Assembly (NCBI GenBank): GCA_003056265.1
Contig: NBVN01000002.1
Coordinates: 150,001 to 182,000 of the forward strand
Length of the DNA: 32,000 bases
Origin: Zestosphaera tikiterensis
GTDB taxonomy: Archaea; Thermoproteota; Thermoprotei_A; Sulfolobales; NBVN01
Direction of reading: 5' to 3'
Positions 2,793-28,294 of the stretch are shown piece after piece. Both the position numbers and the translations under genes were made by a program. Below the pieces are notes generated by a model that saw only the letters and a program-made list of their open reading frames with translations, searched no databases and was not told the DNA's origin. Numbering within the stretch: position 1 is the stretch's first letter; every line of letters starts with the position of its first letter.

Positions 2793-3303
2793 TAGACGTT
2801 AACCCCGCTTTAAGTCTTAAGGCTTCATCGAGAGTTTCGCTTATGGTTTTCCAGTGATTGCCTTGCCAGTATATCTTCCTACATTTAGGGCATCGCCAAA
2901 AATCTTCATACTTAACCCCTAAGTCTTTAGGAAGTAGCGAAAGCGCTTCTGCTTTATTCATTCTCTCAAGTAGGGTATTGCATTTAGGGCATCTCGTATT
3001 TGAAGGATTAAACTTAAGTTCCACACCAACCTCGAGAGATAGTTGAGCCAGCATTTTCGAGACGTCATCGGTAGATATTAAAACGGCCTCCAACCCCTTC
3101 TTCCTCGCTTTCCTAAAGAGACCCACATCTCGCGTAACTATAATACGGCTTGATTTCTCAGCCACCCTAAGGATGCGCCAATCCTCAGCCTTCCTCGAAT
3201 AAAGAGTATCGTAACCTAACATCCTCAACCAACGCGCGAGATTCCCCAACATAGCATCAACAACAAACTTCATTAAACCTCTCAACCCACAATTACAAGA
3301 CAT
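2779..3303 (-). CDS. Mut7-C / DUF82 PIN-like RNase domain protein with a C-terminal zinc ribbon
   Basis: The N-terminus FVVDAMLGNLARWLRMLGYDT is the DUF82/Mut7-C signature. The C-terminus has CPKCN...CPKC (a 4-Cys ribbon). Confidence 0.75.
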   Translation of the reverse strand: MSCNCGLRGLMKFVVDAMLGNLARWLRMLGYDTLYSRKAEDWRILRVAEKSSRIIVTRDVGLFRKARKKGLEAVLISTDDVSKMLAQLSLEVGVELKFNPSNTRCPKCNTLLERMNKAEALSLLPKDLGVKYEDFWRCPKCRKIYWQGNHWKTISETLDEALRLKAGLTSNGKQ

Positions 3304-3462: not shown

Positions 3463-6400
3463 GTGTTTGCCTTGATAAGGCAAGCCTACGCGTTCTTCCT
3501 GCTGACCGCTATAGCTTTAGCTTTACTACCGACTTTAAGTATGTTTCACGCGGAGGTTTTAACTGAGTATAAGCTAGTTAGAACTCCTGAAGATGTTTAC
3601 TCAGGGCAACCCGTACTTATCTTTGCCTACGTCCCCAGCGGTGGAGACGTTGAGTTAGAGGTGTCGATATCTCTTGAGGCTAAAGTAGGAGCTCGTGAAT
3701 ATACACCTTCACCTGTAGTGCATAGAGTTCCTATGATTCCTATCCCATGGGCTAGTGGGTGGTATGTAGTTCAGATACCTGGGTTGCCTGCGAAGAGCTG
3801 GAGCTTTCAACAACTAGGGATTACAATAGGGATTACCGTAGCTAGTAAAGTTACGTATAAGCTAGTTGTGGATGGAGCTGTAGTTGCGTTTGACAGCTAT
3901 GTCGTTAAGGAAGGGGAGATATCTAAATATATGCCGCCGTTTACTTACGCATTTATCTACGACGTCCTTAAAGACCCAAGTATCGTAAGTGAGACGCTTG
4001 GTTTAGGTCCTCACGGCTGGGTTGTCGGAGGTGGTGAAAACGTCAAGATCATGGTGTTAGCTTTCGATGAGAAGTCTCAACCAACGCTGAGGTTTGAGTA
4101 TAGGGTGGGTGGAGCGTCTTGGGCTGAAGTTTCGGTTGGTGACAGTCCCTTCATGGAGAAGTTGAACTCCTTAGTAAGCTATGTCAACACAGCTCTTAAG
4201 TCTGTGGAGAATTGGGTTAAGCAGTTCTATAAAGACATAACCATCCCAGAACCTAAGCTAACGATTAAAATAGCTGAAGCAGTCATACCGCCTCAAAACT
4301 TCGGTACATACGTTATGTTTAAAGCTACCGCTAAAGACGTCGATGGAAACACCATGACTTCACCCACAGGTTTTTACTACGTAGTTAATAAAGTAAGTAC
4401 TACGAAGGTTTTAATAGTAGATCCACATGTGTGGTTATGGCTTCTTAAAGAAAACGTTAATCAAGTGTTTAACACGTCTAAACACATCGTTAGTTATGAA
4501 ATCCCTGAAGACGTTATAGCGCCGTTAAGATATGTTTGGAATGTTTCAAAAACTATAGTTAACTATGGGTTAGTACTATTCCACCACTGGGAGTACTTAG
4601 GTAAGTACTACAACATATACATATCCTGGCCGAATAGGGATGTAGCTACGATACTCAACACGTTTAAACCGAACGTGATCATCTTAAGTAGCTTAGGTCT
4701 TGGCTTGAAGGATGGGGGGTTATGGAATTGGGATTTAAGAGATGTTAAAGTTGATGGGGGAAGCCTATTAGATCGCTTAACATCATACGTTAAAGAAAAC
4801 CACGCTGGGTTAATAGCTACACACGCTACACTCAGCGATGAGATCCTGTGGACTAGTTGCGAAGATAGAGTTAAGGTGGGGACTAGAGGGCATGTAGGCT
4901 ACGACCTAACAGACGTTAACATATTAAGTGAGTCTACAGTGGCAGCACTTCTTGGAATGCCTGAGTTAGCTTTATGGGAGTATGTAAGGGATGCCGTTGC
5001 TAAAGCTTTATGTAGCTACCCGCAAACACAGCCTATAGGGATGCTCGTCGGCTCCACCCCCCTTCAAATACCGCACGTGCCTTGGGATGGGGTTTTAAAG
5101 CTTACTTTAGAAGCTGGAGGGCTTGGGTGGGACTTACCGCAGGAGTTTACTGTAGAGATGCCGACGTTAGCTAGAGAGTATGGCTTTAAAGCATATACTG
5201 AAGTTGGTTGGCAGCTCGCACTACCTAGGGCGTTAGCTTACGTAGCGTGGGATTCAGCCTCTAAAGCTGGAGCGGAATTCACCATAGTTAAGGATAGGGT
5301 TGCTTCACTATACAACAACATCACTAAGGGCGTTGTTAAAACGCCTGAGTTAAGTATGTACTTAGATAAAGCCCTCGATCATGTTATAGGGGATTTCTAT
5401 AAGGCGTTAAACTCAGCAAGAATTAGAGGTACTGCTTTAAATATGTCAATAGCTATTGCTGAGGTCGGTAAGCCCCTCAACATATCTGTAGACGTCGGTA
5501 AGGAAGCGTTGATTAACTTAATGCAGAAAATGCCCGTTAAGATAGTTGCGTTATCACCTAAAGGATTGGCTGGCGTTATTACTTACGATAAGTTCTGGGA
5601 TTCTAACGGCTATAGAGCCGTGTACTTCAGTTTTGAAGTGGAGGCTGCTGAAGGTGAGGTAGTTGAGAAGCTCTTAATCAACTCTGTTGAATGGGTGAGG
5701 AAGTGGCGGTATTTAGATATTACGGAACTTTTAGGAGGTCTCGTGAGAATACCTAAGGATACAGCATCTAGGTTTAAAGAAGTTGTAGCTAACGCTCCAG
5801 GGAAGGAGTTACTCTCCAACGGGTTAATGCTTAACGAGGAAGGCGGTGCGGAAGTAAAGCTGGATTTAACGCCTGGAAGGCTATACCTAGTTATAGCACA
5901 CCCAACAAGCGACGTCTCCGTAGGAGTTGCTGAAGGACCGGCTAAAATCGTTAACATAACTAAGACCGACAACCACATAACGCAAGTAGCTATAGAGGTT
6001 GAAGGCTATGGAAGTGTAGTGATATCGTTGAAAGCAGGGTCTGAAGCGTCGTTAAACCCAGCATACTTAACAGCGAAGTTCGAGTCCTACCCAACCTTAA
6101 CAGAAACAACTACAGCAACCACCGTTACAACTACAGTAACTGTAACTAAAACAACAACAGTAACGATTACGGAAGTTAAAACAACAGCAGCTCCCGCAAC
6201 TACAGTTACTGAAACTAAAACAACTACAGTACCTACAACTATAACTACTGTAAGACCTACTACAGTAGTTACTACTGAGGTGAAGACGTTAACAACAACT
6301 ACAGCGATACCTATCACAATAGTTCAAACACAAACATTAACACAAACCACAACAACACAAACAACAATAACAATAACAACACCAAAAACAGAAACAACAA

Positions 6401-6501
6401 CAGCAACACAAACAATAACAGACTGGACAACAACAGGAATAGTAGCTGTAGTATTGTTGGTTATAGGTATAGCTTTAGGGTACTTCATAAAACGAAAGTA
6501 A
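3463..6501 (+). CDS. Large secreted, membrane-anchored surface protein (probable glycoprotein), function unknown
   Basis: 1012 aa. It has a hydrophobic N-terminal signal-like segment, a ~115-aa Thr/Val-rich stalk, then a single C-terminal TM helix ending in KRK. GAGGTG at 3460-3465 suggests the true start may be the in-frame TTG at 3472. Confidence 0.7.
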   Translation: MFALIRQAYAFFLLTAIALALLPTLSMFHAEVLTEYKLVRTPEDVYSGQPVLIFAYVPSGGDVELEVSISLEAKVGAREYTPSPVVHRVPMIPIPWASGWYVVQIPGLPAKSWSFQQLGITIGITVASKVTYKLVVDGAVVAFDSYVVKEGEISKYMPPFTYAFIYDVLKDPSIVSETLGLGPHGWVVGGGENVKIMVLAFDEKSQPTLRFEYRVGGASWAEVSVGDSPFMEKLNSLVSYVNTALKSVENWVKQFYKDITIPEPKLTIKIAEAVIPPQNFGTYVMFKATAKDVDGNTMTSPTGFYYVVNKVSTTKVLIVDPHVWLWLLKENVNQVFNTSKHIVSYEIPEDVIAPLRYVWNVSKTIVNYGLVLFHHWEYLGKYYNIYISWPNRDVATILNTFKPNVIILSSLGLGLKDGGLWNWDLRDVKVDGGSLLDRLTSYVKENHAGLIATHATLSDEILWTSCEDRVKVGTRGHVGYDLTDVNILSESTVAALLGMPELALWEYVRDAVAKALCSYPQTQPIGMLVGSTPLQIPHVPWDGVLKLTLEAGGLGWDLPQEFTVEMPTLAREYGFKAYTEVGWQLALPRALAYVAWDSASKAGAEFTIVKDRVASLYNNITKGVVKTPELSMYLDKALDHVIGDFYKALNSARIRGTALNMSIAIAEVGKPLNISVDVGKEALINLMQKMPVKIVALSPKGLAGVITYDKFWDSNGYRAVYFSFEVEAAEGEVVEKLLINSVEWVRKWRYLDITELLGGLVRIPKDTASRFKEVVANAPGKELLSNGLMLNEEGGAEVKLDLTPGRLYLVIAHPTSDVSVGVAEGPAKIVNITKTDNHITQVAIEVEGYGSVVISLKAGSEASLNPAYLTAKFESYPTLTETTTATTVTTTVTVTKTTTVTITEVKTTAAPATTVTETKTTTVPTTITTVRPTTVVTTEVKTLTTTTAIPITIVQTQTLTQTTTTQTTITITTPKTETTTATQTITDWTTTGIVAVVLLVIGIALGYFIKRK
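6094..6437 (+). repeat. Low-complexity ACN-codon (Thr-rich) tract encoding the stalk of the surface protein
   Basis: Runs of aca/act/acc/gta/gtt codons, for example acaacaacacaaacaacaataacaataacaacacc. The antisense ORF 6087..6317 is an artefact of this tract. Confidence 0.85.
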
Positions 6502-6512: not shown

Positions 6513-7388
6513 AACAAGCCTAAGATATTTAATGTTTTAATATAGCTTAAGATCCCAGCCATAGCTTCCCTCATAAATAAAAGCTCTTAAAGACTCCCTC
6601 ACTTCAAATACCCTCATCTCTCTAAACTAGTAGAACTACTCACGATATTCGATATTATAATTATAGTAAAAGATTGGCTTCGGACGGGATCTTTCTAGGT
6701 AGTCTTAAACCTAAAAGAAGAAATGTTTCATCCCTAGATAATCTATTCCCTAAAGTTGAGGAAGTAGCAAAACTCCCCTCCGAAACGTAAAAATAGACGT
6801 ACCTAGCACCCGCTGAAGCTCCTAAAAGCCGTGGGCTCCAGCTATAGGGTTTAAGTATGGATTTAACCTTTCTCGCACTCTTTACAAAGAAAGTGATTTA
6901 AAGCCTAATGAGGGAACTCAATATAACCCATACTAGAAACTAGAAAATCTACGCAGAGTTTGGACTAGTCTAAACTTTCTTTAAGGCTGTGTTGCTTAAG
7001 TAGGCGTTAGCTTCTAGCGTAGTTTCAAGCGTGAAGGTAAGCATACGCTCTGCTTAAGTGTAAATTTACACTCACAAAGGAATTAGCTTTTCAGGTATCT
7101 CTAATACCTCATAAAATCTAATCCCTGCGTGAATCAGCTTCTCTAGGCTTACCCCTGGAAATCTACTTTCAGGGACTAACCTCAATTAGGTTCTTCAATC
7201 CCTTTATCGTGAATTAGATCTTCTAAGGGATTAGCTTTCCTAGGGGGTTATCGAGGACTAGACCTCTTGGGTTCTAGGATCTTAGGAGTGAGGCAGTAAG
7301 AAAAAGTTCAATGTTCTTAATGAAGTTGAATTAAAAGAATCGTTATGCAGAATTGGAAGCAATTGAGTTAATGCGATGACCTAGTTGC

Positions 7389-8546
7389 TTACTTTTTCTC
7401 TAATTGTAGTAGGATTGGGATTGTTGCTAGGAATAGTATTAGGCTTGTTAGGTATGGTAGTGTTGGGTGTAGTGTTGCTAGTAGCCCAGCTGTGAGGGGT
7501 GCTATGAGGCCTATTATTCTCTCAAAACTCGATACCCCAGCTAGTATGCTGCTCGCTTTATCGCTTGGTATCTTGCTAAATATCCATGATCTGTAGAAGG
7601 GTAGTGATAGGGTATTGCCAAACTCAGCCATGATGTTAGCTGCTAGTATAGCGTAGAAGTTGGGGATTAGAAACATTATCAAAGCCCACAACGTTCTCAA
7701 TACAAAGTATAGGGATATGACCTTGAATCTATGCCTAGGGTGTATACGCTCAGATAGGTGTGTCGCAGGTAGCGATGCTAGAGTTGATAAAGCTACTACA
7801 AGCATTATCTGAAAGAAAGACATCTTGAGATCTATCATCATGTAGTTTATTAAGACTATCTCAGGTGCTAGATATAGCGCAAGAATCTCCAGAGCCTCTA
7901 TAGCGAGTATAGCCCTGAACTCTCTATCGAACCTAAAGGTAAATACGTCGCCTATCCTCTCCCCAACATCAAGTCTAGGCAGGTACTTAACCAAGTACGT
8001 AACCGTGAATATTGAGGAGCCCCCTATAGCTATAAAGCCAATTGCATAGTGTATTGGCTTAGGGAATAGTACGCCAAAGATGTATCCTAACACAATGAAG
8101 CTTATAGCCTCGCTCAGCAACGGTAATCTCATATGCCATGCATACACTTCCTCAAGCCTATCCTTAGGGTAGAGTAGCTTCTCAGCAGCTTGATACAGTG
8201 GGTAGAAGACCCTAGAGATCTTACCCACGAGTAGACCTAGAGAAATCATTAGAGGCCCTAGAAAGCTGTACGACAACCCGTAGAGAACGTTCTCCACACT
8301 ATCCAACGCATCTATCAGGATAAGGCCGTGCCTAATCGCTACTCTATCAAACAGCTTACCGATGAAGTAGGTTAAGGGAACCGATAGAATGTTTATGACA
8401 GTAAAGAGTAGCCCTATCTCAAGTATAGAGTAGCCAGTCATGAGCATGTACGCTGGCAACATATACCAAGTAATGAGGAGAGGAGATATGATCGTGTGGT
8501 AGATTATATACCTACGAACACCTACAGGTATATCCCTCCACCTCAA
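7389..8546 (-). CDS. MFS-type transporter
   Basis: 385 aa and hydrophobic throughout, with about 10-12 TM segments. It carries the MFS motif-A-like loop GKLFDRVAIRHG between early helices. Confidence 0.7.
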   Translation of the reverse strand: MRWRDIPVGVRRYIIYHTIISPLLITWYMLPAYMLMTGYSILEIGLLFTVINILSVPLTYFIGKLFDRVAIRHGLILIDALDSVENVLYGLSYSFLGPLMISLGLLVGKISRVFYPLYQAAEKLLYPKDRLEEVYAWHMRLPLLSEAISFIVLGYIFGVLFPKPIHYAIGFIAIGGSSIFTVTYLVKYLPRLDVGERIGDVFTFRFDREFRAILAIEALEILALYLAPEIVLINYMMIDLKMSFFQIMLVVALSTLASLPATHLSERIHPRHRFKVISLYFVLRTLWALIMFLIPNFYAILAANIMAEFGNTLSLPFYRSWIFSKIPSDKASSILAGVSSFERIIGLIAPLTAGLLATLHPTLPYLTSLILFLATIPILLQLEKK

Positions 8547-14093: not shown

Positions 14094-14100
14094 CTGCTGA

Positions 14101-14250
14101 CGGCCCCTGCTGTTTATGGCAGGGGTTCTCCCCCTAGGGCTTCCATCACCTCTCTGGAGCCCCTCACCGGGAGTGCATCACCCATCAGCTCCCGCCGTCA
14201 ACTCCGGGAAGGTGTGGGTCTCATCCCAAGCTACGGTTGCCCACACCCAA
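14101..14250. other. G+C-rich hairpin-rich element X. It may be a structured RNA or a repeat element; strand and family are unresolved.
   Basis: About 65% G+C over 14101-14220 by my count. Hairpins: 14104-14110/14119-14125 (7 bp), 14168-14173/14189-14194 (6 bp), 14211-14218/14240-14247 (8 bp). Palindrome CCCTAGGG at 14132-14139. No tRNA T-loop is present. Confidence 0.5.
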
Positions 14251-14274
14251 CCCAATATCTATTAAGTTAGAGAA

Positions 14275-16007: not shown

Positions 16008-17108
16008 TTAAGTCTTAAGTACGTTGATAGCTTTCGGGTTCTTAACCCTTAAAGTTAAGGTCTCCCAAACCCTATATTTATGTTCATCTGCTTCAGGACC
16101 TATGTAATCAACTACGGTATCTGCGGCTACGACCAAGTCTATATAGTGTTTATTAGTTGATACTATAACCGCTACGTCATCGCTTAATTGAGGTATTTGA
16201 ACAACGTCTGAAACTAACACCTTAACCCTCTCCAACTCCAGAACCCCTGCTCTTTCGTGATATCTAAGTAGCTTAGAATACCTTCCAGGACTTAAGAACA
16301 GTACGTAAGGCGGGGCCACGCCTTCGTTAAGCATTGCCTTAACAGCTTTAGCCACCTCCTCAACAGCACTTCCCGGCTCGGACCAATCGCTTACGGGGGT
16401 TTTGAGGGAACCTTCACATGTTAAAAGCCCTGGAATGCCTAAGTCTGCCTTACCTTCAAGAACGAATGAATCTTCCTGAAAAGCTAGTTTAACCGCCGCG
16501 TTTGAAGCCGTAGGTAATTCAAGCTCTAAACCCGCCTTACTTAAGTAGTCTAAAGTCCTTACTTTAACGTTAAACTCAACGCTGATTTCATGCATGGGTA
16601 AGTACTTAAGGTGTTTTGTCTTGATGACGTCGCCGGTCGTGTCAACAACCTCCACTAGGACGTTCTCCACACCTCTGCCTACGTACGTTACCGGTATGTA
16701 GTGGCGGAACTTACGGGTTTTATCGGCGTATTCTCTAACCTTATCAGCTATTTTGCTGGTTAAACCCTCCTCAACTTTAACGTTGCTTTCTCCAGGCGGG
16801 TCTTTAGCTTCGATCCCTGTTAACGCCTTAACCTCCTCAGCACCAGCTGCTAACTCGGCCACCTGCTCCGGGTCTAAACTCTTTAACAGCGTTAAGAACT
16901 CCCCAACATGCGTTTTCTCTTCTTTAGCTATGTCTTCAAATACTTTACGATACCTCTCATCCTCTACATACCTAGCGAATTGAAGGTATAGGTTTATAGC
17001 GTCTAACTCAGCTATAACTGAAAGCCTTAAAGCTTCAGCAAGCTCTTCCTTACTAAACTTCCTTAAAGGAGGTAGTTCTAATGGATGCTTACCTAGCAAA
17101 GACACCAC
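16008..17108 (-). CDS. Encapsulin (HK97-fold, linocin M18-type) shell protein with an N-terminal fused ferritin-like (EncFtn/Flp) domain
   Basis: The N-terminal ~95 aa carry E..AI..Y and EEKTH (ExxH) di-iron motifs. The remaining ~270 aa are shell-like. The architecture matches the Pyrococcus furiosus PfV-type fusion. Confidence 0.75.
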   Translation of the reverse strand: MVSLLGKHPLELPPLRKFSKEELAEALRLSVIAELDAINLYLQFARYVEDERYRKVFEDIAKEEKTHVGEFLTLLKSLDPEQVAELAAGAEEVKALTGIEAKDPPGESNVKVEEGLTSKIADKVREYADKTRKFRHYIPVTYVGRGVENVLVEVVDTTGDVIKTKHLKYLPMHEISVEFNVKVRTLDYLSKAGLELELPTASNAAVKLAFQEDSFVLEGKADLGIPGLLTCEGSLKTPVSDWSEPGSAVEEVAKAVKAMLNEGVAPPYVLFLSPGRYSKLLRYHERAGVLELERVKVLVSDVVQIPQLSDDVAVIVSTNKHYIDLVVAADTVVDYIGPEADEHKYRVWETLTLRVKNPKAINVLKT

Positions 17109-25592: not shown

Positions 25593-26600
25593 GTGGTTAA
25601 GGTTCTAGCCTCAGCACCTGGTAAGGTTACTTTGTTTGGAGAGCACGCTGTCGTTTATGGTTACCCAGCCATAGTTACAGCTATAAATAAAAGGGTTTAC
25701 GTAGAAGCCGAACTTAGAAACGATAATGAGATTAAGATTAACGCTCAGGATTTAAGGGTTCCAGGTCTTATAGTTTCCATCGGCGAGGGCGAGGTCGTAG
25801 TAACTACAGACTACGGGAGATCATTAGCCGCTATGAGCTACTTAAGTAAAGCGATTGAGGTAACTTCTAAGTTCTTAAATGAGAGGAAAGGTGTGAACCT
25901 AGTAGTAACTTCTGAAATGCCTGTGGGAGCTGGTTTAGGGACTTCAGCTGCGGTTTCAGTTGCTACGATAGCTGCGTACGCAACGTGTTTAGGTCATGAG
26001 TTAAGTAGTGAGGTTATAGCTCAGTTAGGTTGGCAAGTTGAGAAGGAAGTTCAAGGCATAGCTTCACCTATGGATACGACCATATCCGCTTTAGGCGGGA
26101 CTTTAAAGCTGTGGTATGAAGGAACTACAGTACATAAGACACCACTAGCGTTAAGTAGTGAACTACCTTTAGTAATTAGTTACGTGGAAAGAGAGAAAAC
26201 AACTAAAGAGATGGTGGCTAAGGTTAAGGAGTTGAGGAATAGACATAGCGAGCTAGTTGATGAAATAATGAAGAGCATAGGCTTCGTAACTAATAAAGCC
26301 GAGCAGGCATTACTTAAAAACGACTTAAGTGAGGTTGGCTTATTGATGAACGTAAATCACGGGTTACTTGACGCTTTAGGTGTTTCTACGCGGAGGCTTA
26401 ACGAGCTGGTTTACCTAGCTAGGTCTTCAGGTGCTTTAGGATCTAAATTAACTGGAGCTGGTGGCGGAGGTGCGACTATATCATTAGTTCAAAACAGTAA
26501 AGCGGAACTCGTATTAAACGTCTTAAGTATGTTTAGCCTCATGAGCTTTAAAGCCGTGATAAACACAGAAGGCGTTAAGGTTAAGGTCTTAGCTAAATAG
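25593..26600 (+). CDS. mvk: Mevalonate kinase
   Basis: Motifs APGKVTLFGEHAVVYG, PVGAGLGTSAA and KLTGAGGGG (GHMP kinase motifs). SD AGGTG lies 7 nt upstream of the GTG. Confidence 0.9.
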   Translation: MVKVLASAPGKVTLFGEHAVVYGYPAIVTAINKRVYVEAELRNDNEIKINAQDLRVPGLIVSIGEGEVVVTTDYGRSLAAMSYLSKAIEVTSKFLNERKGVNLVVTSEMPVGAGLGTSAAVSVATIAAYATCLGHELSSEVIAQLGWQVEKEVQGIASPMDTTISALGGTLKLWYEGTTVHKTPLALSSELPLVISYVEREKTTKEMVAKVKELRNRHSELVDEIMKSIGFVTNKAEQALLKNDLSEVGLLMNVNHGLLDALGVSTRRLNELVYLARSSGALGSKLTGAGGGGATISLVQNSKAELVLNVLSMFSLMSFKAVINTEGVKVKVLAK

Positions 26601-26694
26601 CCACAACTCAAGCTAAGTCACGCTTAACATCTAAGGGTGGGCTGCAGTTTCTATTGTAAAGGTTTTTAAAGGTTTTTGTAGATTGTTTTATTCT

Positions 26695-26901
26695 GGGGCG
26701 TGAGACCGCTTCCGTGATGGGCGGTGTCTGGAGGAGCGGGTCGGAGCCTAGGGCATGCTCCGTAGATGTGAGCCCTGTGCCGTTAGGCTCGAAGGGTGTC
26801 CATGACCCCCGTGTGGAGTGGTCTGTGGCCACCGTGAAGCACGAGGCAGAGGCACAACCCGCCCTAGCAAGACCTACAATAACCTAGGGCGGGAAACGGT
26901 C
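26695..26901. ncRNA. Candidate structured ncRNA (G+C-rich island), family not identified
   Basis: About 60-67% G+C per 60-nt line. Termini pair (26704-26713 GACCGCTTCC with 26892-26901 GGAAACGGTC, 9 of 10). Perfect 10-bp hairpin 26858-26867/26884-26893. TTTTTAAA at 26663-26670 lies about 25 nt upstream if the RNA is on the + strand. The overlapping ORF 26608..26832 has an implausible composition. Confidence 0.5.
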
Positions 26902-28294
26902 AGTAAAAACTCTTAAATTCTTGATTACCTTCAAACGTCGACTTAACTAGGCTTCTAAAGGTATCTATGTAACTGGCGTATTTATCTCTTACGTAGACTC
27001 TAAGGAACGCTAGTTCTGTAGGCATAAGACCAGCTAACGTCTCTCTAATTAATACGTTCCTTAAACTTCCATCCGGTTCCTGTATATAGACCTCAGACTC
27101 TTCAAACATGGGGTTTGTAGGTAGTTTGGGGGTGTCAACGAATATCGCGTCCTTCACGTTTTTCAAGCTGGGGTGTAAGTTACTGAATTTCTCCTCGAGT
27201 ATGTTCTTTATCGCTTCCTTACTCATTAAGACAAACCTCTTCGTCTTAGGGTCTAAAGGTATTACAGCTTGGTAGACGGCTTTATATGGCACTACCCTAT
27301 TTAAAAGGTATTTAGCTTCGTCTAACTTCCTAACCTCTGGATGCGAGAGTACGTGCTCATCATCTAACGTAAGGTATTTACTGACGTCGTCGAAAGCTTC
27401 ACCGTAGTTGAATATGGGATCAGCTTTAATGAGTAACTCACCAGCTATCTTATCGAAAGCCCTTACTGTCTTATGATAGTATACGGTCTTAAACATGAAG
27501 AGCCTAGCTATTAACAGATGATCTAATACATCCTTAGCTTTATAGTTTAAAACTAATTTATTCCCTATTAAGTGGGAGTGATAAGCTAGCCTCTGCCAGT
27601 CAAGTCCTAAGCCGTAGTTAGCGCCCGTATATAGCGAATCTCTTAAAAGGTAGTCTATAATGTCCGCGCTGTAGGCACCGCGGATTATATAGAAAAGCGT
27701 CTTCTCAGTAACGCCCTCACTTATGCTGGAGGTTAGGGGCCATGATTCAATATTCGGCGTTTCAATTAACTTACCCATTAACTCAGCTGAGACGCCGTAG
27801 CTTTTCTCTATCTCGTCGTCGAAGCACTTAGAGATGTCTGGAACTTCCGTAACGATCTTCCCGCCAAGCACTTCATGATTTATTCCGTAATTTACTAGGA
27901 CATGATCCTCGAATGTGTGTGAGAAGGGGCCGTGTCCTATGTCGTGAAGGAGACCTATAAGTCTAGCGATGGCTACAAGCCTCTTAAGCTCGGAGTGGTT
28001 TAGGTTTAGGCTGGAGTATAGATATTCAGCGAAAACTCCGGCTACGTGAGCTACACCTAAAGAGTGTGTGAACCTCGTATGGACAGCACCTGGGTACACT
28101 AAGTGTGTAGTAGCTAGCTGTTTTAACCTTCTTAACCTTTGAAAAGGTTGTGATGACAACACACATATCTCATGCTTTAAAACCCTTATGTATCCATGTA
28201 CAGGGTCTTTAATCAATATGAATTCCTTATCCATTAACCCCCCTAAAGAAATAACTTTAAAGTCAGTATTAAATGAATGACGGGTGTTAAACAT
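26900..28294 (-). CDS. HD-domain phosphohydrolase of the SAMHD1 / dGTPase-like (COG1078) type
   Basis: Motifs RFTHSLGVAHVA and GLLHDIGHGPFSH. The likely true start is ATG 28234 (MDKEFILIKDPVHGYI). Confidence 0.85.
   Translation of the reverse strand: MFNTRHSFNTDFKVISLGGLMDKEFILIKDPVHGYIRVLKHEICVLSSQPFQRLRRLKQLATTHLVYPGAVHTRFTHSLGVAHVAGVFAEYLYSSLNLNHSELKRLVAIARLIGLLHDIGHGPFSHTFEDHVLVNYGINHEVLGGKIVTEVPDISKCFDDEIEKSYGVSAELMGKLIETPNIESWPLTSSISEGVTEKTLFYIIRGAYSADIIDYLLRDSLYTGANYGLGLDWQRLAYHSHLIGNKLVLNYKAKDVLDHLLIARLFMFKTVYYHKTVRAFDKIAGELLIKADPIFNYGEAFDDVSKYLTLDDEHVLSHPEVRKLDEAKYLLNRVVPYKAVYQAVIPLDPKTKRFVLMSKEAIKNILEEKFSNLHPSLKNVKDAIFVDTPKLPTNPMFEESEVYIQEPDGSLRNVLIRETLAGLMPTELAFLRVYVRDKYASYIDTFRSLVKSTFEGNQEFKSFY

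Follow-up and report, generated by a model that had tools for sequence, protein, structure and literature searches.

The guide RNAs of TnpB nucleases, known as omega RNAs or right-end element RNAs (reRNAs), are encoded by the 3' end of tnpB together with the right end of the transposon that carries it (PMC10640517, PMC10097598), and the retention cycle of such elements has been demonstrated for IS605 and IS607 (PMC10055086, PMC10690162). Gene-less derivatives, the palindrome-associated transposable elements (PATEs), 'often encode omega RNAs' that require TnpB in trans (PMC10055086), and a miniature element of Sulfolobus, SMN1, has been reported to undergo mobilisation in S. islandicus REN1H1 (cited in PMC3718332). 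Here, we describe a locus of this kind in a 32,000-nt stretch of archaeal DNA (the window; positions 150,001 to 182,000 of contig NBVN01000002.1, Zestosphaera tikiterensis). A G+C-rich island at about 26695-26901, between the mevalonate kinase gene (mvk) and a gene for an HD-domain phosphohydrolase (HD), had been flagged in an initial annotation as a candidate structured noncoding RNA. We conclude from sequence comparison that 26635-26899 (+ strand) is very probably a miniature, protein-less derivative of a tnpB-bearing insertion sequence (IS) of the IS200/IS605-IS607 group, similar to SMN elements and PATEs and carrying an omega RNA. The parts of the parent that appear to be retained are its left end, including the promoter and leader of tnpB, and the last ~125 nt of tnpB with the right end, which together form the omega RNA scaffold. 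Rather than a housekeeping RNA gene, the island is an element of a known kind, here met in a new archaeal lineage.

The 3' 138 nt of the island (26762-26899) have homologues in IS605-OrfB/TnpB genes, where they correspond to the last ~115 nt of the gene and the right end of the transposon. BLAST against phage and archaeal-virus records returned the 3' ends of genes for an 'IS605 ORFB family protein' in STSV2, STSV4, STSV3 and STSV1; these matches lie on the sense strand of the gene, extend over ~100 nt and have 73-75% identity (E = 6e-10 to 2e-9). By Pfam, the STSV2 OrfB is a TnpB with Cas12f1-like TNB and RuvC domains, and its last 40 residues (376-415) are 60% identical (BLASTP, E = 2e-13) to the product of a 57-codon open reading frame (ORF) at 26714-26887 in the window. 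The TnpB of a related element (L169) matched the window at the same mini-ORF by tblastn (E = 1.7e-14); a weak tblastn match of the TnpB zinc-ribbon region at ~2881-3113 was set aside, as it belongs to a Mut7-C RNase gene. A protein search with the 57-residue product returned three short proteins only and no full-length TnpB, and supplied two relatives, L113 and L114, the latter a tnpB C-terminal end running off its contig. Among mvk-linked loci listed from 80 genomes, mostly haloarchaea and methanogens, nhmmer found one homologue (L015), which has in common with the window the blocks GTAGATGTG-N7-TGCCGTT-N-GG-NN-CGAA-N6-CCATGACCCC and ..CCCTAG..CTAGGG..AAACGG, with compensatory changes in the first hairpin. 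A first viral scan with the motif GTAGATGTG-N7-TGCCGTT gave 21 matches, all attributable to chance, and was discarded. [quoted passage not shown]

The boundaries of the element emerge from comparison of its copies. The same miniature element occurs in L113, where the surrounding locus is unrelated; this copy is 82% identical to the window's over 272 nt (window 26632-26900) and shares with the window ORF the fusion junction ..EP..CSVDVSPVPLGSKG... The left end opens with GGGTGGGCTGCAG (~26635) and the right end closes with GGGAAACGG; because similarity in seven close copies stops right after this sequence (..AAACGG) and every flank is different, we place the right end at 26899 and the start of the predicted guide at 26900. 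More broadly, 94 distinct flanks were counted in 107 copies among the matches listed. The element thus delimited is about 265 bp long and runs from GGGTGGGCTG.. to ..GGGAAACGG between the flanks ..ATCTAA and TCAGTA.., with neither terminal inverted repeats nor a target-site duplication readable at the junctions and no transposase gene between them, only the relic ORF. GG stands at both window junctions, as in IS607 (PMC10690162).

Within these limits, the left end carries a sequence resembling a TFB-recognition element and TATA box (BRE/TATA), AAGGTTTTTAAA (26659-26670, + strand), which is identical in L113 and is a putative promoter; it contains the box TTTTTAAA (26663-26670) that had been noted 25 nt ahead of GGGGCG (26695). 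Counterparts occupy the equivalent place in other miniature subfamilies (TTTTTATAT, CTTATAAA, GTTTATA). The T-runs at 26659-26673 (AAGGTTTTTAAAGG) had also been considered as the mvk terminator, but they belong to the mobile unit, because the same sequence is kept in L113 at its unrelated locus; we infer that this A+T-rich box is the element's own BRE/TATA-type promoter. Downstream lies a 5' module (26695-26761) composed of the tnpB leader and a relic of its first codons, folded as a predicted hairpin with the old start GTG ATG (26714-26719) near the apex. The K-loop-like hairpin described earlier (ACCGC at 26705-26709 with GCGGT at 26721-26725 around GTGATGG) can be drawn in the window, but it is not kept in L113; what L113 keeps, as CCUGCUCC/GGAGUAGG, is the longer hairpin CCGCUUC (26706-26712)/GGAGCGG (26733-26739), with equivalents of the form ..(G/A)UGAUGGGAGC..GCUCC.. 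in other miniature subfamilies. GTGATGG is a relic of the tnpB start-codon region rather than a K-loop. The collapsed tnpB frame (26714-26887, + strand, 57 codons) joins a short N-terminal segment to the last ~40 codons of tnpB; the 138-nt omega RNA scaffold (26762-26899, + strand) is followed by the predicted guide segment TCAGTAAAAACTCTTAAATT (26900-26919, + strand), the flank just beyond the right end. Its length of ~16-20 nt is assumed by analogy; the ISDra2 guide has 16 nt (PMC10097598). From its first base (26900, TCAGTAAAAACTC..), the predicted guide is complementary to the end of HD, covering its stop codon and last codons.

The retained right end has a fold that is shared by its homologues and shows strong covariation. 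The structure was read from an alignment of 35 non-redundant scaffolds (A3) and then tested, and a covariance model (R1) was built from the same alignment. On the + strand of the window, the fold comprises helix S1 (26770-26775 with 26785-26790), a pseudoknot joining CCGUU in the S1 loop (26780-26784) to AACGG (26895-26899) directly before the guide, the long-range helix S2 (26796-26800 with 26851-26855), a variable hairpin S3 (within 26806-26848) and S4, the perfect 10-bp hairpin already recognized in the initial annotation (CCCGCCCTAG at 26858-26867 with CTAGGGCGGG at 26884-26893). Over four helices, the pseudoknot among them, standard pairs occupy 97% of cells compared with 82% in shuffles, 13 of 22 pairs have changed on both sides, and the covariation score of 0.365 (0.098 in shuffles) was reached by 0/500 shuffled alignments; sliding the partners by 1-3 columns lowers pairing to 23-55%. 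Covariation across relatives, which the initial annotation had suggested looking for, is present as compensatory changes in the 35 homologues. The pseudoknot is paired in 35/35, as CCUUG:CAAGG in the related STSV2 and STSV4, a switch that probably represents a single evolutionary event and so is modest evidence alone. Pairing of the island ends had been proposed as well: GACCGCTTCC (26704-26713) and GGAAACGGTC (26892-26901) are complementary at 9/10 positions, but this helix is unlikely as a working fold because its AAACGG pairs with the loop CCGUU in the pseudoknot of every homologue. Model R1 matches the island only, at 104 bits; as the window sequence belongs to the training set, this match shows only that no second copy is present in the window. 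Energy-based folding sets the island only marginally apart from shuffled sequence: minimum free energy (MFE) z scores against shuffles were -1.95 for the + strand and -1.67 for the - strand, weak evidence by themselves, and the unconstrained MFE structure of the island differs from the homology-supported fold. The ISDra2 omega RNA, resolved by cryo-electron microscopy, has four stems and a pseudoknot pairing the pre-guide bases with the 5' part of the scaffold (PMC10097598), and the predicted topology of the window scaffold matches it.

The genomic setting is that of an insertion-deletion difference (indel). The element is bordered by mvk (25593..26600, + strand; GHMP kinase domains, homologues named mevalonate kinase) and by HD (26900..28294, - strand; Pfam HD and HD_assoc_2), both outside it, the HD stop codon abutting the right end. 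A native intergenic spacer (26601-26634) separates the mvk stop from the left end, similarity to L113 beginning only at ~26632-26635. Homologues of mvk place the host among uncultured Desulfurococcales/Fervidicoccaceae/Zestosphaera-like archaea. The closest relative (L002-L004, mvk 92% identical) lacks the element and has the same convergent mvk/HD layout with 22 bp between the stop codons, compared with 299 bp in the window, and the alignment picks up exactly at the HD stop. Because a relative with a 92%-identical mvk has just these 22 bp, the island, together with the A+T-rich stretch ahead of it, is an indel. The window locus, island included, recurs at 100% identity in a JGI metagenome (L235); the organism is represented in samples JGI 3300005801 and SRR17771679, and a more distant locus (L006, mvk 65% identical) has unrelated sequence in the mvk/HD spacer. 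Judged from these loci, presence and absence follow a pattern that one would not expect of a housekeeping RNA gene.

Two further observations concern the same site in other assemblies. The L006 spacer (5003-5286) is a different, 285-bp G+C-rich sequence. It contains the hairpin GGTCTTGGG...CCCAAGACC, after which comes an H/ACA-like AATACA, and also a stretch of the form GATGAGG...CTGA, so that other lineages appear to have different small RNAs at this intergenic position. A Logan contig with an identical mvk gene (L001) stops inside the miniature element, at window position ~26737. Assemblies typically break at repeated sequence, and the position of this break hints at further copies of the element in the genome from which the contig came.

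Full-length relatives point to the type of parent. In the tnpB elements L169, L114, L167 and L229, the right-end 138 nt are 83-90% identical to those of the window; these elements share the right end only, and the left end of this subfamily was seen, besides the window, only in L113. In the sister subfamily represented by L015, both ends of a full-length element can be recognized in the miniature, one half of which corresponds to its left end (L122 5900-5950) and the other to its right end (7249-7428); this full-length element is located on another stretch of the same 292-kb contig as miniature copies. This Desulfurococcales-like contig, seen as two stretches (L184 586-765, 8199-8520 and 11078-11478; L122 5900-7428 and 9159-9480), contains one full-length tnpB element together with at least three miniatures that are 78-100% identical to the element of L015. 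As it also has another match to the right end, it shows proliferation within a single genome. A scan of hot-spring metagenomes gave, among matches listed, 121 matches in 120 stretches. Of these, 66 were classed as miniature because fewer than 60 codons lay in frame upstream, 25 were full-length and 12 intermediate, while contig ends truncated the other 18. In four full-length relatives (L169, L158, L182 and L188), a gene upstream of tnpB overlaps it, as is the arrangement in IS607; its product has helix-turn-helix and Resolvase domains by Pfam in L169 and L158, as in a serine-recombinase TnpA, and the same ORF is present in L182 and L188. No such recombinase gene was seen upstream of tnpB in L122, L161, L174 or STSV2. 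Across copies, left ends begin with GG(G) and right ends finish with CGG, and at 40 distinct sites the base ahead of the left end is T (21 sites), A (11), G (6) or C (2), giving T/A in 32/40. IS607 uses a GG core dinucleotide and a TGGG target (PMC10690162), with which the GG junctions and the T/A preference agree. Separately, two SMN2-type miniatures (L176, L155) carry an extra ~85-nt left-end insertion, flanked by repeated CACATTA and lying ~40-190 nt upstream of the GATGTG motif, which may be a nested tiny insertion.

Taking these lines together, we propose the following cycle. The left-end promoter would transcribe an RNA of ~225 nt from about 26695, consisting of the leader, the scaffold (26762-26899) and a guide copied from the flank (26900 onward), and this RNA would be bound in trans by the TnpB of a full-length element elsewhere in the genome. 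Excision by TnpA, likewise acting in trans, would be scarless, and the TnpB-RNA complex would then cut the emptied site, recognized as W-GG (W, T or A) followed by the guide match, which for the window would read ..ATCTAA-GG-TCAGTAAAAAC... Repair of the cut by recombination with the sister chromosome would restore the element. Judging from the flank counts, the occupied site should be spared, since C rather than T/A precedes the GG of the right end (..AAACGG). In a thermophile the RNA must fold stably, which accounts for the G+C richness of the island.

Several points weigh against this interpretation. There is neither tnpB nor tnpA in the 32-kb window, and as the rest of the genome lies outside this view, the trans partner is assumed. 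Both a repeat search and model R1 found no second copy of the element, leaving a single copy in 32 kb, and no full-length element with the left end of this subfamily was recovered. The empty site of L002 is diverged and lacks GG at the junction, so that insertion and deletion are inseparable and the exact target is not reconstructable. The W-GG motif is a statistical preference drawn from flanks, not a measured target-adjacent motif, and no oligo-T terminator follows the predicted guide. The scaffold also overlaps the coding sequence of the parent, so that some of its conservation is inherited protein constraint; the compensatory changes cannot be explained in this way. On balance, whether the window element is currently active in trans appears to us evenly poised. 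A further, more tentative suggestion, which we regard as possible but rather doubtful, is that the miniatures are guide-RNA-only parasites of TnpB systems, reduced to a promoter and an omega RNA, that borrow the nuclease and transposase of full-length elements to home and persist. If true, the window copy would be an active, independently transcribed guide RNA gene, with a guide that is also antisense to the 3' end of HD.

Of the competing explanations, the one that survives best holds that the locus is an inert relic, whether a decayed pseudogene of tnpB or a dead miniature, that is neither transcribed, bound nor mobilised and whose structure is merely inherited. The missing tnpB and tnpA and the solitary copy would fit such an end state, and truncated, decayed right-end fragments of the family do exist, L229 copy B being one. 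Against decay stands the state of the window copy, in which all helices and the pseudoknot are intact, the R1 match extends over the full length, and the promoter box and both ends have been retained in common with L113 despite 18% divergence. The identical locus in the JGI metagenome, and the fact that miniatures with an intact scaffold are the commonest form among metagenome matches listed, also argue against it, and we consider this explanation unlikely.

It is far less probable that the functional product is the 57-residue peptide of ORF 26714-26887 and not an RNA. The frame is open in the window, in L113 and in the SMN2 copies, gene callers predict it, and SMN2 elements have been said to 'carry small putative ORFs' (PMC3839810); the dN/dS (nonsynonymous to synonymous substitution ratio) of 0.38 between the window and L113 would also suit a peptide, but it is confounded by RNA constraint on the same bases, from which a low value is expected. 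The sequence is merely the C-terminal tail of TnpB, fused to N-terminal segments that vary by subfamily (16-55 in-frame codons upstream), compensatory changes at paired positions alter residues, and conservation runs beyond the stop codon to the right end. Coding on the opposite strand fares no better: the initial annotation had named protein-level conservation of the minus-strand ORF 26608-26832 as evidence against an RNA, and none was seen, all matches to the island being on the + strand.

Just as improbable, in our estimation, is an exapted regulator, that is, an RNA whose 3' guide, complementary to the 3' end of the HD mRNA, controls HD by antisense or RNA-guided action. The exact complementarity of the segment from 26900 to the HD stop and last codons invites the idea, and bacteria are known to have domesticated TnpB-guide pairs that act as transcriptional repressors (PMC10705468). 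However, the guide always equals the landing-site flank throughout the family, the close relative lives without the element, and there is no nuclease-dead TnpB nearby.

What the initial annotation had favoured was a host RNA, and its compositional reading was borne out: G+C is 62-68% in the island (0.62-0.64 per 100 nt) against 0.41 for the whole window, and only four stretches reach at least 0.68, namely the island, a second island at 14094-14262 (element X) and two tRNAs. The motifs it listed could all be read directly in the sequence where it had placed them, and its proposal of a structured + strand RNA with a BRE/TATA-like box upstream agrees with the compensatory changes in homologues; the housekeeping or L7Ae-type class does not hold, given the empty Rfam result and the indel. 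At the gathering score, the only Rfam hits anywhere in the window are the two tRNAs, and with E <= 10 the stretch 26550-27050 gives a single chance hit (mir-27), which lies outside the island and leaves the island itself empty. Covariance models of archaeal RNase P (types A/T), the signal recognition particle (SRP) RNA, H/ACA, C/D and HgcC have no match in the island, so the RNase P, SRP, H/ACA and HgcC-like candidates named earlier fall away, and ARAGORN predicts neither a tRNA nor a split tRNA there. A scan for bacterial sigma-70 promoters and terminators is uninformative for this host, as the consensus is not archaeal. A host housekeeping or L7Ae-type RNA (minimal RNase P, SRP-like, H/ACA or HgcC-like), attractive at first sight for its G+C-rich island and promoter-like box in an A+T-rich thermophile genome and for its GUGAUGG motif and hairpins, thus retains next to no probability, as the sequence matches no Rfam family at either threshold, is missing at this locus from the nearest relative, shows homology both to the coding sequence of tnpB and to a sequence annotated as a MITE, occurs at unrelated loci and in viruses, and has a K-loop hairpin that L113 does not keep.

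Other features of the window can be described briefly. Element X lies between rpl23 and rpl2, reaches 68% G+C, is G-rich on the minus strand and has TTTATAAG ~30 nt upstream on that strand. The initial annotation had linked it to the island through shared short words, and the 8-mer CCTAGGGC does recur at 26747, 26883 and 14133, but the similarity goes no further, as element X has no match to R1. It was also rejected as a second copy of the element after comparison with phage records and the other loci compared here, which gave no match. In Rfam it shows only sub-threshold resemblances to C/D-box small RNAs, on the minus strand (sR58, 13.9 bits, E = 1.8), and it may consist of tandem C/D small RNAs. 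At 16008-17108 (- strand), an ORF encodes a fusion of rubrerythrin/ferritin-like and encapsulin shell (Linocin_M18) domains. Imperfect ACA/ACT-rich repeats at 6099-6439, in which a 41-nt unit occurs 8 times with 63-76% identity to the reference copy, lie near the 3' end of a 1012-codon ORF (3463-6501) and probably encode the Thr-rich linker of a surface protein.

Reading the island as the scaffold of a tnpB-derived miniature has consequences beyond this locus. It removes a false lead, as the island is not a missing RNA of the RNase P or SRP type, and it indicates that G+C islands in thermophiles can be guide-RNA scaffolds of transposons, of which current Rfam models miss this one. It connects the long-known SMN elements of Sulfolobus with the omega RNAs of TnpB and adds a Desulfurococcales-like lineage to the range of the family. 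Alignment A3 and model R1 describe an omega RNA of thermophilic archaea whose pseudoknot is supported by covariation, which should aid annotation and the pairing of compact, thermostable TnpB proteins with their guides. Among the matches listed, gene-less, promoter-bearing copies outnumber full-length elements, a hint that guide RNAs may spread independently.

Compared with described systems, the window element stands closest to SMN2 and SMN1 (SMV1, HG322870; plasmid pMGB1), which are likewise 250-320 bp long, lack a transposase and terminal inverted repeats, and contain a small relic ORF. SMN2 has the same layout, with a GG-initial left end bearing a TATA box, a collapsed tnpB frame and the order ..AGAUGUG-hairpin-CGAA..CCAUGACCC..hairpins..AAACGG; its core is 86.7% identical to that of the window over 45 nt, and one covariance model fits both. 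The window copy nonetheless belongs to another subfamily, its left end and hairpins S3 and S4 being unrelated in sequence, and its host is an uncultured Desulfurococcales/Fervidicoccaceae-like archaeon rather than Sulfolobus. In the published descriptions consulted (PMC3839810, PMC3718332), SMN elements are treated as MITE-like and a guide-RNA role is not mentioned. With the omega RNAs of ISDra2 and of SisTnpB1 from S. islandicus, the element shares an origin from the tnpB 3' end and right end, and a conserved scaffold followed by a variable 3' guide (PMC10097598; PMC10640517); with ISDra2 it also shares about four stems and a pseudoknot that joins the pre-guide bases to the 5' scaffold (PMC10097598). 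It differs from both in having no tnpB in cis, only the 57-codon relic, in a predicted promoter at the left end instead of within tnpB, and in a likely IS607-like target motif W-GG, as opposed to TTGAT or TTTAA; its scaffold has no sequence similarity to that of ISDra2 and no Rfam family. PATEs of the IS200/IS605 group in bacteria and haloarchaea are gene-less derivatives like the window element and keep both ends, as it appears to do, but they belong to elements with a Y1 transposase (IS605), which have subterminal DNA hairpins and a target of 4-5 nt, whereas the full-length relatives of the window element that have an adjacent transposase gene (L169, L158, L182 and L188) encode a serine recombinase and have GG junctions.

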